DNA of 64,000 bases. Origin: a virus. The stretch lies in IMG/VR virus record IMGVR_UViG_3300047323_000304, positions 96,001 through 160,000 of that record. One strand, written 5' to 3'. The notes under the pieces were generated by a model. That model made no database searches and had not been told where the DNA came from. It saw only the letters and a program-made list of their open reading frames with translations. The stretch's first letter is position 1. Each line of letters starts with the position of its first letter. Positions 44,679-50,629 of the stretch are shown piece after piece. Both the position numbers and the translations under genes were made by a program.

Positions 44679-45275
44679 TTAATTCTCTTTTGTTTTCTTT
44701 ACATTATAAACAAATTCTAAATAATGCTTTCTACAATAGCCTTTAGCATAATATTTTCTATTACAATTTTCAGTTATGCAACTATTGGCTTTCATATATA
44801 AAGGATCGCTGTATATATGAAACTTTCTATAATGACTTTCACAATATCCATTAGAATATGATTTGTCATTACATTCATCTACTTGACAAACTTTCGGATA
44901 TTGTATCCTTTTTTCTACTTGCGTTACTTCTCCATATCTTTGTATTTGTGCATAATGTCTTTTACAATATCCCTTTGCTATAACCAAATCATTGCAACCA
45001 TCCACCTTACAAATAGAAATATCTTTTAAGCCTAATTTAAGATCCTTTTCTATTTTCAGTTTTCTTTGTGAAGTCCAATGAGACTTACATAAATTTTTAG
45101 CATAAGTAATTTTATCACAGCCATCTACTGAACATATTGTTTTTTCTCTTCCTAATTCTCTTTCTGGAGTCAATCTACCATGACGTATTATTTGGGTATG
45201 GTGTTTACTTCAATATCCATCATTTGTATGCCTTTCTTTATTACAACCTTCAACTTTACATGTATCATTTGTCAT
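44679..45275 (-). pseudogene. Cys/His repeat (C..DGC...GYC..HY) Zn-finger protein with an in-frame TGA at 45210-45212
   Basis: ATG at 45275 with GAGGTG RBS. It reads MTNDTCKVEGC...DGY*SKHH...RLTPERE, continuing in frame into the track ORF. Confidence 0.7.
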
Positions 45276-45334: not shown

Positions 45335-45517
45335 TTATCCTAACTTTTTACCAATATAATAACCTATTACCAAAATTATAATACCCAATACAACCAACTT
45401 AATCATCCTAATTATATAGTATGTCCAAAAATATATCTTAAACATAAATGATGATACTATTCCACATACTATTAATATTAAGAATAATAATAGTGACCCC
45501 TTAATTATGTACTTCAA
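45335..45517 (-). CDS. small two-helix membrane protein
   Basis: Two hydrophobic stretches. Confidence 0.55.
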   Translation of the reverse strand: MKYIIKGSLLLFLILIVCGIVSSFMFKIYFWTYYIIRMIKLVVLGIIILVIGYYIGKKLG

Positions 45518-46040
45518 TTGATTTCTCCTCCTTTTTATCTTTTCTTATAAGCTAATTTAAAGTCACTGGCATAATGTCCTTAAATTAACCCACAATGGGC
45601 ATTAGCATTTGTTTATTATTAATTTTATCACATCTTTCTATGTATTAGTTATTGTTTTGCAATTCGTCCAATCTTTTTAACATATAATCAATCTCTTCTT
45701 GGGTTATAACTGTAGAAGAATAATTTTCTTCATTTGTTTGATCGTTATTTGAAAATATATCTTTAAATTTGTTTTTTATATTGGCTAAAAACATTTTTAT
45801 ATCACCTCCCTTCAATAACTCTTTAAATCCTCAATTTAAATTAAACTTATTCTCTTTATTTTATTATTTTTAATGCTTCTTGAATTTCTATATCAATATA
45901 ATCCGATTGCGTATGTATTCCTGTTAGCTTATTTAATATAATTAGACTTACTGCAAATATTATTACTTTTATCATTAAATTCACCTCTTTATTTTAGTTT
46001 ATTTATAATTAATTTTATATTGTTTCTAAGTTTATTTTTA

Positions 46041-46070
46041 AAGAGTAGACAAAATTATATGTCTACTCTT
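46041..46070. terminator. Hairpin downstream of the peptide gene (probable terminator)
   Basis: AAGAGTAGACA / TGTCTACTCTT, 11-bp perfect inverted repeat. Confidence 0.6.
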
Positions 46071-46089
46071 TCTTTGTCTTATGTATTTA

Positions 46090-46182
46090 TTACCCTCTAG
46101 TTGATGTTCCAGCCATTGCTACAACACTTGATAAAATCATAGTTGCAGTAATGATGAACATAATTAATGTTGCTTTTTTCAT
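46090..46182 (-). CDS. Secreted signalling pre-peptide (AimP/Phr-like), 30 aa; predicted mature GTSTRG; missing from ORF track
   Basis: MKKATLIMFIITATMILSSVVAMAGTSTRG*, with GAGGTG RBS. Basic N-region, hydrophobic H-region and an A-M-A signal peptidase site before the C-terminal hexapeptide. Confidence 0.8.
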   Translation of the reverse strand: MKKATLIMFIITATMILSSVVAMAGTSTRG

Positions 46183-46270
46183 TCGTTTCACCTCTTTCAT
46201 ATATGTATTATTAATATAGAGTTTTTTAATTATATCTATATTAACTTATACATATATGAAAGTGATTTTA

Positions 46271-46927
46271 CTATATAGCTTGTATTATATTACTTTGTTT
46301 TAATAACAATACCTTATTATATAATAATTCATTGACCGTTTTTATTTCTTTTATCAACTCATTAAATTTTTTTTCATATTCAGTATTGTTATTATGTAAA
46401 ATGTCCTCAAGTATCTCAAGGACTATGCTAAAATTTTCTTTTGCTAAATTTAGATCAAACTTTGCTACTAACTTATTTAAATATCCATTATCATTTTTAT
46501 CTTCAATATTTTCATAAATATGATAGCAAAATTCATAACCTTCTATTATTTCTTTTCTCGTCAATTCTTTCTTATGACTTTCAATATAATTAATTAATAC
46601 CCTAGCATATAAACAAGCATTATCCCCTTCTTTATAGCCTATTTCATTATCCATATCATTCTTTAATATTGATGTATAAAATTTTACTTGGCTCATTTCG
46701 TATACTTCTAATCCGTTTTTTCGTCCTATTTCTATCTCTGCTACAATCAAATTATGAAGTATCAATCTTCTTTCTTCTATATAAGTTAACATATCATATT
46801 CACTAAAATACATTTTTTTCAATTTATCTCTTGCCACTTCCACACCTTTATTATCCCAGTCATCAAAAATTTCTCCCAATACTCTTTTTTTTATAGTTTT
46901 CTTTTTTACCATCCTAAATTCACCCAC
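46271..46927 (-). CDS. Putative TPR-like (RRNPP/AimR-like) peptide receptor lacking an obvious HTH
   Basis: Amphipathic helical pattern with Asn/Tyr/Ala periodicity; directly upstream of the pre-peptide gene; fold inferred, not confirmed. Confidence 0.5.
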   Translation of the reverse strand: MGEFRMVKKKTIKKRVLGEIFDDWDNKGVEVARDKLKKMYFSEYDMLTYIEERRLILHNLIVAEIEIGRKNGLEVYEMSQVKFYTSILKNDMDNEIGYKEGDNACLYARVLINYIESHKKELTRKEIIEGYEFCYHIYENIEDKNDNGYLNKLVAKFDLNLAKENFSIVLEILEDILHNNNTEYEKKFNELIKEIKTVNELLYNKVLLLKQSNIIQAI

Positions 46928-46939
46928 TTCATAATTTAT

Positions 46940-47713
46940 TTACATAGCTATTTTTTCCTCTTTCTTTTCATACATTTTATAGTAATCTCTATAATTTAAT
47001 TTATTATCTTCACAAAACTTTTGTAGTGACCATAAAAACGCTTCTCTTTGTTCAAGTAGATTCTTTATTAAACTTTTATTTTTTGCTTTACTTAAAGCCT
47101 TTTCGTATGTGTATATATCATCTAGTATTTCCTCTATATTATCTTGCATATATTTTGGTAATCTCTCTAATGGAGTCTTTGGTTTTAATCTACCATTTTG
47201 TATTCTAATTGCTTGCTCAACTTGCTCCATTATATCCTCAGTCACAGTACCTATTTTATATTTAAATTGTGTTTTTTTATCTATTGGACATAACGTTTCT
47301 GCTAAAATAACTGATTTTTTCTTTAATCCACATTCTTCAAAATTATCTATTTCCACATGTATAGGTAACTTTGATTTACCTAATTGAGACGTAATTGCAC
47401 ATCCACTAATATTTGGACTATATCGGTTGTTTAATTCGTTCGAGGTAACTAAAAAAGGTCTAATTCCACCCTGAATAGAATGTCTTCCTGCTCCCAAATC
47501 AACTTGCCATATTTCATATTGTTTTATTTCTAAAGGTCTATTTACACTTTCCTTATAATTTATTTCCATAGTAACTTGAACTTTATCATTTTCAAGTTTA
47601 TTACTATGTACATTAATTGTCATCTTATCGTTATTTAATTTATTATCCACTTTAACCTCTTGTTCTTTTAACATTTGTAAAGCGTTCATACTTTTTTCAT
47701 TTAAATCTAACAC
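46940..47713 (-). CDS. mazF: MazF/PemK-family endoribonuclease with N- and C-terminal extensions
   Basis: Core EIWQVDLG...QGGIRPFLVTSN...NRYSP...CAITSQ..K.KLPIHVEID...SVILAE...IDK closely tracks B. subtilis MazF. The catalytic Arg and Thr equivalents are retained. Confidence 0.9.
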   Translation of the reverse strand: MLDLNEKSMNALQMLKEQEVKVDNKLNNDKMTINVHSNKLENDKVQVTMEINYKESVNRPLEIKQYEIWQVDLGAGRHSIQGGIRPFLVTSNELNNRYSPNISGCAITSQLGKSKLPIHVEIDNFEECGLKKKSVILAETLCPIDKKTQFKYKIGTVTEDIMEQVEQAIRIQNGRLKPKTPLERLPKYMQDNIEEILDDIYTYEKALSKAKNKSLIKNLLEQREAFLWSLQKFCEDNKLNYRDYYKMYEKKEEKIAM

Positions 47714-47773: not shown

Positions 47774-47890
47774 ATATTACCATGTCATTCCATTGTTGTC
47801 AATAACTTTTTAAATTATTTCTTTCATTATTTTTAATTTATTTGTTTCTTCCAATGAGTTAATAATACTATATATGGATTTATAAGTCAA
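47774..47890 (-). promoter_or_regulatory. Sigma-A promoter(s) upstream of mazF, with copies of the AT-rich phage motif
   Basis: TTGACA (47802-47797)-17-TAATAT (47779-47774), a second TTGACT at 47890-47885, and a TAAATTAAAAATAA copy near 47827-47843. Confidence 0.65.
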
Positions 47891-47948: not shown

Positions 47949-47972
47949 AGGGTTAGATATATTCTAAACCCT
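47949..47972 (-). terminator. Intrinsic terminator after the MrpR-like gene
   Basis: AGGGTTTAGA-loop-TCTAACCCT stem followed by a U-rich tract on the minus strand. Confidence 0.6.
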
Positions 47973-49218
47973 AGTTATTATATAATGTTTCATCTAATTC
48001 TACTATTGTATTATCTTGGGTAGGTGGACTTGCTTCTTTCAATATGACTCCATCTGAATCGACTTTCATACCATCGACTTCTTGTATTTCTTTATTTTCA
48101 AACTTTTCTTCCCCATTAATAAATTCTTGATATCCAATTGCTTCAATAATGTCTTCAACTACCTGTTTTGAAGCTGGATCTTTTAAAGGTTCTAATAATC
48201 TTCTAGCATTATTTCGATATACAATTTTATCTTTAGTTAATGATTGATAAAATTCTACTAAAGCAATCGTAATTTGTGGAGTATGAACTCCTTTAAAATT
48301 TAATTGCACCCATTGAATATCATCAATAGATAATTTTCTTTCTTTTCTCATATCAAGTAAATAATCCATATATCTAGATTTTAATAAATCTCCAATTGCA
48401 ATTCTTGGTACTTCCGCACCTTCACAAGCAAGGTATATTCTTGTATCAATTGTATGTCTACTAATAAGTAAACTACTATCATTTTGATTTTTCTTAGGTT
48501 TCTTTAATACATATCCAAAATCTTCTTCGTCAGTATCTAAACTAAGTTTATATTTATCTATCTGTTTAATAAACCTATCATCCACATCTAATATTCTTGG
48601 AGCTTTACCACTTTCTACAATACTTACTTGTTTCTTTTCATAATTTATATCATCCCATTGTAAACTTCTCATTTCAATTAATTCTTTACCTATTATTCCG
48701 TATCTAGCTAATAATAAAGGTATTGTATGACTTAGCTGTGACGTTTGTTCTATTTTAACTAATAGATTATAAAACTCTCCTAGTCCCCAAACTTTATTAA
48801 TTAATACGTTAACCATACTTTTAGTTGTGCTTTTTCTATCCATAGCTTTCACAGAATTATGTTTTATTTGTTTATTACTGACTCCCCAGTTTTTATATTG
48901 ACTAATGAAATTTATTATTTGATCTTTCATTGCAGGAGAATATTTAAATTTAGTTGCAATAACTTCATCAACTTCTATATTACTAAAAAACATTGCTTCT
49001 TTTCCTAATTGTATTTCATGCTCATTAATATGATTATTATAACATGACCACATGCTTTTTACTGTTACTTCATTATCATACAATTCATTTAAGAATTTAA
49101 GTTTATTGCCTTTTGTTTTATCATAATCTTTTAAAAAGTTTTCATAATCATGTTTTGATTCAGTAGTGAGAATTTTTGAATTATCAAGTTCATCAACAAT
49201 AAAATATTTATTCTTCAT
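47971..49218 (-). CDS. MrpR/YopR-like degenerate tyrosine-recombinase-fold regulator
   Basis: LLLARYGIIGKELIEMRSLQWDDI (box I-like, catalytic Arg absent) and IGDLLKSR (box II-like, H-x-x-R absent); follows a YopQ-like gene as in SPbeta. Confidence 0.6.
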   Translation of the reverse strand: MKNKYFIVDELDNSKILTTESKHDYENFLKDYDKTKGNKLKFLNELYDNEVTVKSMWSCYNNHINEHEIQLGKEAMFFSNIEVDEVIATKFKYSPAMKDQIINFISQYKNWGVSNKQIKHNSVKAMDRKSTTKSMVNVLINKVWGLGEFYNLLVKIEQTSQLSHTIPLLLARYGIIGKELIEMRSLQWDDINYEKKQVSIVESGKAPRILDVDDRFIKQIDKYKLSLDTDEEDFGYVLKKPKKNQNDSSLLISRHTIDTRIYLACEGAEVPRIAIGDLLKSRYMDYLLDMRKERKLSIDDIQWVQLNFKGVHTPQITIALVEFYQSLTKDKIVYRNNARRLLEPLKDPASKQVVEDIIEAIGYQEFINGEEKFENKEIQEVDGMKVDSDGVILKEASPPTQDNTIVELDETLYNN

Positions 49219-50629
49219 TAGAAACCACTTCCTTTGCTATTTTTTCAAAGAAATTATACACATTCTTTACACTAACACCTTTATTAATTAATTTCAATGG
49301 AATTAGTTCTTCTTCAGTTAATGATATTATTTTATTAGAAATTTTCATTAATACATCATCATAATTTTTTAGTTCATGTAGTATATTCGCAACTGCTAAA
49401 TAGCCTATGAAAATGTTAATATCGGCTAAATGTGTTTTATTTATTAAATTATGCATTGTTCCATACTTCATTATAAATGATTCAAACAAATCATCAATTA
49501 CCATTGCCATTTTCCCAGCAGTCATTCGTCTGTTTAATCTGTTGTTAACTTGAATATTAGTACACATTTTTTCTATTGTTTCACTCAAAATAGCTGAATA
49601 AGTTAAATGCCCTTGGTTAGCAAAATAAGATTCATAACTTTTTGATACCTTCTCTTTCAATGTTTCTGATTGTTCAATTAATGCTTCAATAAACATATTG
49701 TAATCACTATTTTCCAATTGACTTAACCAATCTGCTGAAGTGTCTGTTCTTTTAAATATTTGATTTACAATATTCTTACTACCTTGTAAATCTCTTATAG
49801 TTAATTTCAAAGGAAATCCTTTTTTATCAAGTGTTTTGCCCATTTTATAAGCTTCTTCATAAGCTAAAACTCCAGCTAAGGTTCTATGCATACCATCTAA
49901 TGGATTTACTACAGTATAATTATTAGAAGTTCTATCATAGTTTGGCGTAACTTCTACATCACAAATAGTCTCAGTACCATATTTTAGTGTTTCTCTTACT
50001 TGTAAAACATTTTTAGAATTCTCTTGATTTAAAACATTATATATTAACATATCTTCTTCATATGTTCCAGCAATAATAGATTTTGCTATTTCCATTTTAG
50101 CTTTATCATTTATTGAATAAGTTTCAAAGGTTATTTTTTTATCTCCAGTTCCAATAGTTTGATAAACTGGCTCTCTTTGTGCTTCAAAATTATAGATTAA
50201 TAATGTGTTACTATACCAATTATATATGTCAGATATTGGAGCGTAGCCCAAGTAATTATAATCATCAATTTTTATTGCATCTTTTATGAATATAGAATTG
50301 ACTTCTTTTATTTCTTTAACTGCACTATCATATCTAACTAATACGTCATCAGAGAACCATTTGTTAATATCTAATATCTCCATATCAGGAAGTCCATCAT
50401 GTGCTCCATCAACAAAAGCAATTTTTTCATATTCAGATAAGGTTTGCCATTGCTTTTCGCCACCAAATAACGAAGACATTAATCTTATGTTAAGATTCTT
50501 TTCTCTAAATTTCTTAGTAATTGCATCTGAGAGTTTTTTATTTTTATATTGTTCTTTTAATATTTCATTTATAACCTCGAATTGTTTTTCTTCAGGTACT
50601 AAGTCTTTTATATTTTTAATTTCATTCAT
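49208..50629 (-). CDS. YopQ-like protein with a ParB/DndB-type DGxHR motif
   Basis: NPLDGMHRTLA; YNFEAQR; 473 aa; coupled to the MrpR-like gene. Confidence 0.55.
   Translation of the reverse strand: MNEIKNIKDLVPEEKQFEVINEILKEQYKNKKLSDAITKKFREKNLNIRLMSSLFGGEKQWQTLSEYEKIAFVDGAHDGLPDMEILDINKWFSDDVLVRYDSAVKEIKEVNSIFIKDAIKIDDYNYLGYAPISDIYNWYSNTLLIYNFEAQREPVYQTIGTGDKKITFETYSINDKAKMEIAKSIIAGTYEEDMLIYNVLNQENSKNVLQVRETLKYGTETICDVEVTPNYDRTSNNYTVVNPLDGMHRTLAGVLAYEEAYKMGKTLDKKGFPLKLTIRDLQGSKNIVNQIFKRTDTSADWLSQLENSDYNMFIEALIEQSETLKEKVSKSYESYFANQGHLTYSAILSETIEKMCTNIQVNNRLNRRMTAGKMAMVIDDLFESFIMKYGTMHNLINKTHLADINIFIGYLAVANILHELKNYDDVLMKISNKIISLTEEELIPLKLINKGVSVKNVYNFFEKIAKEVVSNEE

Follow-up and report, generated by a model that had tools for sequence, protein, structure and literature searches.

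Peptide communication between phages is known mainly from two systems of Bacillus phages, arbitrium and the phage-borne Rap–Phr pairs, the receptors of which control transcription or host regulators. The SHP and PrgQ precursors of the Rgg and PrgX systems are approximately 21–23 amino acids long and nearly all signal-like, and their active peptide is the extreme C-terminus. The hexapeptides matured from known AimP precursors include GMPRGA, SAIRGA and GIVRGA (PMC13220667), and the arbitrium system of phage phi3T works through the host MazEF system (PMC10769878). The RNase activity of MazF is also reported to be modulated in a density-dependent manner by extracellular death factor (EDF) peptides, among them EcEDF (NNWNN) and a Bacillus subtilis hexapeptide (PMC3668371). 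In RRNPP systems the propeptides comprise 21–50 amino acids and the validated receptors 285–473 amino acids; the RRNPP signature consists of five criteria, including an adjacent propeptide of 10–100 amino acids, its Sec export as predicted by SignalP, a receptor of 250–500 amino acids and a match to a TPR HMM (PMC10075063).

In this study, we analysed a 64,000-nucleotide stretch of viral DNA (the window), which corresponds to bases 96001–160000 of the 193.9-kb IMG/VR virus record IMGVR_UViG_3300047323_000304, a record with an estimated completeness of 78%. The G+C content of the window is approximately 25% and nearly all of its genes are carried by the minus strand; PHROG matches to primase/helicase, ParB-like, HNH and integrase-like families confirm that it belongs to a large phage. 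The original prediction, made from the letters of the window, had singled out a 30-codon open reading frame (ORF) as the gene of a phage pheromone akin to the arbitrium peptides. Having compared this ORF and its neighbours with their relatives, we lean towards the view that a secreted hexapeptide is sensed by a TPR protein without a DNA-binding domain, which would gate the phage's own MazF.

Genomic setting and gene order

A rhizosphere metagenome, which may be the source of the record, is the only sequencing run that contains the region. Cultured phage records gave no match either to the region by megablast or to the TPR-like and YopQ-like proteins by tblastn. A search for related loci with profile A1 returned one relative only from IMG/VR, lying on the same contig as locus L007, and none from genome contigs or metagenome contigs. 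The loci compared here are the contigs of ten members of the TPR-like family and one truncated case, all of them metagenomic phage contigs. The genes that concern us in the window are the following.

49208–50629, minus strand: YopQ-like DGxHR protein (phrog_5732, 3.4e-25), adjoining the recombinase-like gene upstream
47971–49218, minus strand: MrpR/YopR-like protein with a tyrosine-recombinase fold (Pfam MrpR_N_CB, 25.2 bits for a cut-off of 27; PHROG integrase match)
46940–47713, minus strand: extended MazF/PemK-family RNase, 257 amino acids (Pfam PemK PF02452; PDB MazF/EndoA; AF2)
46271–46912, minus strand: TPR-like protein without a DNA-binding domain, 213 amino acids (AF2 fold), or 218 amino acids if translation starts at the GTG at 46927
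46090–46182, minus strand: pre-peptide ORF, 30 codons and TAA (translation, orthologues and synonymous change at R-G)

This order (YopQ-like DGxHR, MrpR/YopR-like, extended MazF, TPR-like, small ORF) is constant in all loci that are sufficiently long. The genes 3′ of the small ORF vary from locus to locus, and the small ORF is therefore taken as part of the MazF–TPR unit, being the last gene of this conserved operon. PADLOC gave no match for any of the four cassette proteins.

The YopQ-like protein shares 20% identity with SPbeta YopQ over 315 amino acids (E 6e-6). Orthologues of the MrpR/YopR-like protein match MrpR_C_cat or MrpR_N_CB; the protein itself has no BLASTP match to SPbeta YopR and no PDB sequence match. 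The two genes, the first of which encodes a DGMHR motif, overlap by 11 nt, and the pair always lies directly 5′ of the MazF–TPR–peptide unit. These features suggest an SPbeta-type repression module outside Bacillus, the similarity to the SPbeta proteins being weak.

The pre-peptide ORF

The GAGGTG ribosome-binding site and the 30-residue ORF of the original prediction are present, on the minus strand, and the translation reads as had been claimed, ending in A-M-A followed by exactly six residues, GTSTRG. The parts of the ORF are as follows.

46189–46194, minus strand: Shine–Dalgarno sequence GAGGTG, 6 nt 5′ of the ATG (46182–46180), kept in all related loci
46111–46182, minus strand: codons 1–24, signal-peptide-like, ending A-M-A
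46093–46110, minus strand: codons 25–30, predicted hexapeptide GTSTRG

The encoded product thus begins with MKK and continues with approximately 21 uncharged residues, A-M-A and GTSTRG before the stop codon TAA. An alternative in-frame ATG lies 18 nt further upstream, at 46200, and would give a product of 36 amino acids. The 30-residue form is the likely product, since relatives that lack the upstream ATG (L004, L008 and L012) nevertheless retain GAGGTG and the downstream ATG. The gene callers of a public protein collection have also called the ORF (P0071 and its orthologues). Taken alone, an ORF of 30 codons is unremarkable, because 90 ORFs of at least 25 amino acids occur in 12 kb of this DNA with 25% G+C.

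Conservation of the pre-peptide

Together with those gained from a profile search with the orthologous peptides, 13 distinct orthologous pre-peptides were available for comparison. In every close locus the small ORF lies directly 3′ of the TPR gene, on the same strand and at a distance of 41–96 nt. The pre-peptides are 30–34 amino acids long from the conserved start and, as called by gene callers, up to 40 amino acids where there is an in-frame upstream ATG. Their signal-peptide anatomy was judged by a rule of thumb (Lys/Arg, an uncharged stretch, [A/V]-x-A). All 13 begin with an N-terminus containing 2–5 Lys/Arg, followed by a hydrophobic core of 17–25 uncharged residues, and in all of them, strongly diverged cores included, the hydrophobic stretch closes precisely with [A/V]-x-A (AMA, ASA, AVA, AFA, ALA, VFA, VLA or VWA). 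After this motif come exactly six residues of the pattern [GTSA]-x-x-x-R-G and a stop codon, again in 13 of 13. The tails are GTSTRG (twice), GTTSRG, GTSPRG, GTMGRG, GTIGRG, GSIGRG, TTSSRG, ATSSRG, TGSSRG, TGGPRG and SGSPRG (twice), that is, 11 different hexapeptides. The original prediction had looked to related loci for a conserved signal and a variable tail; ORF and signal pattern are indeed present in every close locus, and within the tail positions 1–4 vary and the terminal RG is invariant.

Three codons (AGA, CGA and CGT) are used for the invariant Arg and all four GGN codons (GGG, GGT, GGC and GGA) for the invariant Gly, and pN/pS of the ORF is approximately 0.5 in the close group. Judged from its codons, the frame is translated and under selection at the protein level, because those of the invariant Arg and Gly vary synonymously. 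The h-region and the tail are equally conserved among close relatives. From this anatomy, the product is probably exported and a six-residue C-terminal peptide ending in Arg-Gly is probably released.

Two loci of distant family members (25–31% identity) have an ORF of 30 or 38 amino acids in the same place, with MKK and a hydrophobic stretch; their tails differ from [GTSA]-x-x-x-R-G and are longer. One encodes a 38-residue pre-peptide with a Cys-containing tail of 17–19 residues (L016:4181-4297). The other encodes a 30-residue pre-peptide ending in GGGWG (L017:4185-4277), the likely cleavage region of which has Pro at +1. These sequences suggest several peptide 'dialects', possibly with different processing. 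The sole locus without an evident signal-like small ORF is L015, where the ORF 3′ of the TPR gene (TPR protein P0027) starts acidic and non-hydrophobic (L015:3649-3729); the contig ends 81 nt past the TPR gene.

RNA and DNA elements of the operon

Three further elements were found around the coding regions.

47774–47802, minus strand: promoter-like site TTGACA-17-TAATAT with TG, 5′ of the MazF gene (a consensus match only)
46190–46266, minus strand: hairpin of approximately 30 bp and −27 kcal/mol (fold) that separates the TPR gene from the peptide ORF, the 3′ arm of which pairs with part of the Shine–Dalgarno sequence
46040–46071, minus strand: terminator-like hairpin with a 12-bp stem, 19 nt after the stop codon, at the end of the operon

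The hairpin upstream of the ORF recurs in eight close loci with approximately 30 bp and −27 to −38 kcal/mol, its 3′ arm pairing with part or all of the Shine–Dalgarno sequence, and is absent from both distant loci folded (L016 and L017). Compensatory changes affect 12 of the 30 pairs in the alignment fold. The presence of G-U pairs on the coding strand speaks for an RNA structure rather than a DNA operator. It may limit translation of the peptide, and it could also be an RNase III processing site. In each of the ten loci folded, a hairpin equivalent to the terminator-like one, mostly with a T-run, lies 3′ of the small ORF. A promoter within the loop of the upstream hairpin was also considered, since the loop contains TATAAT in the window; it was rejected because relatives do not share the sequence of the loop.

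The TPR-like protein

The protein encoded just upstream of the peptide ORF belongs to a family of small proteins. It has 12 homologues with 41–70% identity to the 218-residue form, and a collection of 1.84 billion proteins contains 46 cluster representatives of the family, none of them longer than 230 amino acids, with full-length relatives of 196–229 amino acids. A search for longer, fused forms found none, which is weak evidence. The protein has no match in Pfam, PHROG, NCBIfam, PADLOC or, with the family profile, PDB sequences, and TPR HMMs of Pfam (E <0.1) and NCBIfam do not match it. A lead from a protein atlas to DUF6707 (score 0.92) was unconfirmed by the Pfam HMM.

The AF2 model (pLDDT 92, pTM 0.87) consists of ten paired helices, and its structural matches by Foldseek and VIA-align are all TPR proteins. 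A search independent of Foldseek found PlcR–PapR (Z 12.3), NprR–NprX (Z 10.7), phi105 Rap (Z 10.5) and RapI (Z 9.9) among generic TPRs. In a second structural look, the best match was the pheromone-bound phi3T Rap (8rsv), with 190 residues aligned at Z 14.1 and an rmsd of 5.8; RapF, RapI, NprR and PlcR–PapR came next with Z 12.3–12.8. The margin of these matches over the TPRs of kinesin light chain and NASP is 1–2 Z units, and a Z of approximately 13 is common for helical repeats. On the model, the fold class of a TPR solenoid is firm; kinship to the RRNPP sensors is not, because the margins over generic TPRs are so narrow. The protein is a candidate peptide sensor and, from the predicted complex described below, a candidate clamp of the MazF tail. 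The suggestion that the adjacent protein might sense the peptide accordingly gains from the comparison, as its predicted fold is a TPR solenoid and Rap, NprR and PlcR are among its top structural matches.

The extended MazF and its predicted complex with the TPR-like protein

The MazF protein comprises a disordered N-terminus (residues 1–59), a MazF core (residues 61–172) and a conserved C-terminal helical hairpin (residues 187–236), as delimited by alignment and the AF2 model. The core matches PF02452 (2.4e-20, 73 bits) and EndoA/MazF in the PDB (1.7e-18), with B. subtilis EndoA the closest, and the gene is the only one with a PemK domain in the phage record. No MazE-like gene is evident beside it, the 257-nt gap upstream holding only a 26-residue ORF, and the antitoxin families of Pfam and NCBIfam do not match the TPR-like protein.

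Complex prediction of the extended MazF with the TPR-like protein gave an ipSAE of 0.80, compared with 0.01 for the best control. Of 80 solved complexes 58 attain this mark, as do two of 110 mismatched pairs, counts that are only rough because our own alignments were used as input. At least 94% of the contacts are common to the three runs, and the partners have a pLDDT of at least 86. The predicted interface is formed by residues 196–233 of MazF and residues 12–24, 53–61, 96–104, 132–146 and 178 of the TPR-like protein, which line its concave groove. The groove residues are more conserved than the whole protein in 11 of the 12 homologues, and across approximately ten pairs their variation followed no clear specificity pattern with respect to peptide identity. 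To our knowledge no similar MazF–TPR complex is known, so the score is unlikely to reproduce a known one. The prediction supports a model in which the C-terminal helical hairpin of MazF sits in the TPR groove.

Small genes downstream of the cassette

The phage region around the cassette is dense in micro-proteins. A second conserved small ORF, encoding 38–39 amino acids, lies in the window at 45856–45975 (minus strand); in related phages, too, it follows the peptide ORF, at a distance that varies. It has its own Shine–Dalgarno sequence, and its product has a hydrophobic N-terminal half and an acidic amphipathic C-terminal half that mostly ends in ELKIIK. Its copies in the related loci are located as follows.

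L004:5936-6055
L005:4826-4945
L007:4016-4135
L008:5622-5738
L010:5663-5782
L011:3063-3182
L012:1469-1588

Just downstream of the cassette there are also two ORFs with good Shine–Dalgarno sequences on the minus strand, one for a two-helix membrane protein of 60 amino acids (45335–45517) and one for an acidic protein of 56 amino acids (45645–45815). Beyond them, a 164-residue protein (44679–45173, minus strand) contains repeated Cys-rich, zinc-finger-like units and matches DUF5763, WRKY19-type proteins and a PHROG 'HNH endonuclease' family; in L008 and L016 as well, HNH-type genes lie 3′ of the cassette.

Proposed mechanism and alternative explanations

In the mechanism that we favour, the first 24 residues of the pre-peptide would function as a type I signal peptide of Gram-positive bacteria, and a cut after A-x-A would free the C-terminal hexapeptide, GTSTRG here and [GTSA]-x-x-x-R-G in the relatives. 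The hexapeptide would build up extracellularly as infected or lysogenic cells become denser, would be re-imported by a host oligopeptide permease and would bind the 213-residue TPR protein encoded just upstream. As long as the peptide is absent, the TPR groove would hold the C-terminal helical hairpin of the phage MazF; in the presence of the peptide this hold would change, so that MazF activity would track the peptide concentration and would bias the lysis–lysogeny or maintenance decision of the adjacent YopQ/YopR-like module. The hairpin over the ribosome-binding site would restrict translation of the peptide from the operon mRNA. We infer export, the cleavage site, import and peptide–TPR binding, as well as the way in which MazF and the phage life cycle would be affected. 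As the tail directly adjoins A-x-A, signal peptidase could free the hexapeptide without a further protease. The conserved anatomy of an exported pre-peptide and the TPR neighbour speak for the phage pheromone that had originally been proposed; the system is not arbitrium. A more specific form of the mechanism, which we offer tentatively and regard as somewhat doubtful, is that a phage-to-phage hexapeptide, once re-imported, competes with the MazF hairpin for a minimal TPR groove or loosens it allosterically and thereby switches the RNase for lysis–lysogeny or plasmid-prophage maintenance. Such a signal would be read wholly post-translationally, in a communication system that has no transcription factor, and the large clostridial-type phages using it would also possess an SPbeta-like YopQ/YopR module. 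Against the favoured mechanism it counts that the candidate receptor, with 213 amino acids, falls short of the length of every validated RRNPP receptor and matches no TPR HMM, as do the acidic start of the ORF in L015 and the Pro at +1 in L017.

The main rival explanation, which we consider rather unlikely, holds that the ORF encodes an uncleaved single-pass membrane micro-protein, with its N-terminus inside and the six-residue tail outside, that takes no part in signalling, is merely co-transcribed with MazF–TPR and acts on, for example, a host transporter, a kinase or the lysis machinery. The hydrophobic stretch of approximately 21 residues is long enough to span a membrane and fits an uncleaved anchor as well as it fits a signal peptide; the region has other conserved small hydrophobic ORFs, such as the 39-residue one ending in ELKIIK, and the h-region of close relatives is conserved as much as the tail. 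However, the position of [A/V]-x-A at the very end of the hydrophobic stretch in all 13 orthologues, whatever the divergence of the core, and a tail fixed at six residues, invariant in RG and variable at positions 1–4, are expected of a processed signal and have no obvious reason in an anchor. The ORF is, moreover, tightly linked to the TPR-fold protein across 25–70% identity.

It would also be conceivable, although improbable in our estimation, that the peptide is exported and cleaved and acts on another target (a host receptor, competing phages or something extracellular), with the TPR protein serving as a non-canonical antitoxin or chaperone of MazF. The TPR protein could be an antitoxin because a MazE-like gene is missing, and it may need no peptide ligand because, in the predicted complex, the MazF tail already occupies its groove. 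Arguing for a connection between peptide and TPR protein instead are the co-inheritance of their genes within one terminator-bounded operon, the receptor-then-propeptide order, which is that of RRNPP systems, and the enrichment of the top fold matches in the peptide-sensing domains of Rap, NprR and PlcR. That the ORF is untranslated and its conserved sequence is an RNA element or the 3′ UTR of the MazF–TPR operon can hardly be credited. Short ORFs are common in this AT-rich DNA and a conserved RNA hairpin does lie just upstream, but all loci preserve the reading frame as well as the Shine–Dalgarno box at its proper spacing, three codons are used for the invariant Arg and four for the Gly, and pN/pS indicates constraint on the protein; on this codon evidence, a non-coding reading is excluded for practical purposes.

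If the favoured mechanism of a secreted hexapeptide acting through the TPR protein on MazF is true, large AT-rich, probably clostridial phages wire a sensor much smaller than those of Bacillus phages directly to their own MazF RNase. The themes of arbitrium and host MazF, which phi3T links only indirectly, would thereby be joined directly. Peptide specificity would be testable with synthetic peptides, as the peptides are short, need no pro-region processing and are available in at least 11 natural variants, each with its own TPR partner.

Comparison with known systems

The arrangement resembles the EDF peptides in that a short extracellular peptide would modulate MazF RNase activity. EDFs, however, are reported to bind MazF itself and have no dedicated pre-peptide gene in the mazEF operon, whereas a dedicated peptide gene and a TPR intermediary are found here. 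With the SHP and PrgQ precursors the pre-peptide shares its very short, nearly all signal-like sequence, but the mature peptides of those systems are hydrophobic, PptAB-exported and Eep-cut, in contrast to the hydrophilic tail after a classical A-x-A site in the present case. The small adjacent propeptide of the RRNPP signature is present, as is, in the AF2 model, a TPR-type peptide-binding fold (Rap, NprR and PlcR, Z 12.3–14.1); receptor length and TPR HMM match, two of the five RRNPP_detector criteria, fail for the protein. The RRNPP_detector search rules exclude such a design, and similar systems may be systematically missed, since the receptor is smaller than 250 amino acids and matches no TPR HMM. 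On the MazEF side, the MazF/PemK RNase domain is present. A literature search found, under the terms used, no paper describing this MazF–TPR–peptide system.

Several features recall arbitrium: a phage-encoded short pre-peptide gene directly 3′ of the gene of a TPR-fold protein, a candidate mature product that is a C-terminal hexapeptide with an R-G core, an adjoining YopQ/YopR-type module and a functional tie to MazF. Kinship to arbitrium nevertheless does not stand. AimR has 386 amino acids with an N-terminal HTH and TPRs, whereas the neighbour here has 213 amino acids, no HTH and no similarity to SPbeta AimR (hhalign of the family profile A2 against SPbeta AimR gave a probability of 0.3%). 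Arbitrium has the output transcript aimX; here a terminator follows in all loci, the genes downstream are variable and there is no aimX-type unit. The 14-residue pro-region that separates signal and hexapeptide in SPbeta AimP is absent, the peptide ends in RG instead of RGA, and MazF is encoded by the phage itself, with the TPR protein as its predicted direct binding partner.

In phage Rap–Phr (phi3T and phi105; PDB 8rsv and 8rte), a TPR sensor without a DNA-binding domain holds a target protein and is antagonised by an exported, re-imported peptide of 5–6 residues encoded just downstream, much as proposed here. Structurally, too, this system comes closest, the TPR domain of phi3T Rap matching with Z 14.1. 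Rap, however, has approximately 375 amino acids with an N-terminal helical bundle; the protein here has no such domain, roughly equals the C-terminal TPR domain of Rap in size, aligns only to residues 168–373 of phi3T Rap and shows no sequence similarity to it. Rap targets Spo0F or ComA, whereas the predicted target here is the MazF tail, and the maturation of Phr peptides involves extracellular proteases that excise them from a pro-region. Of the known systems, Rap–Phr is the closest analogue in its working, and arbitrium the closest by context, because the peptide is phage-encoded, a hexapeptide with an R-G core and set in a YopQ/YopR-type neighbourhood. Since the arbitrium tests and two of the five RRNPP_detector criteria failed, the MazF–TPR–peptide cassette is best placed as a variant of peptide–TPR signalling outside any described family.
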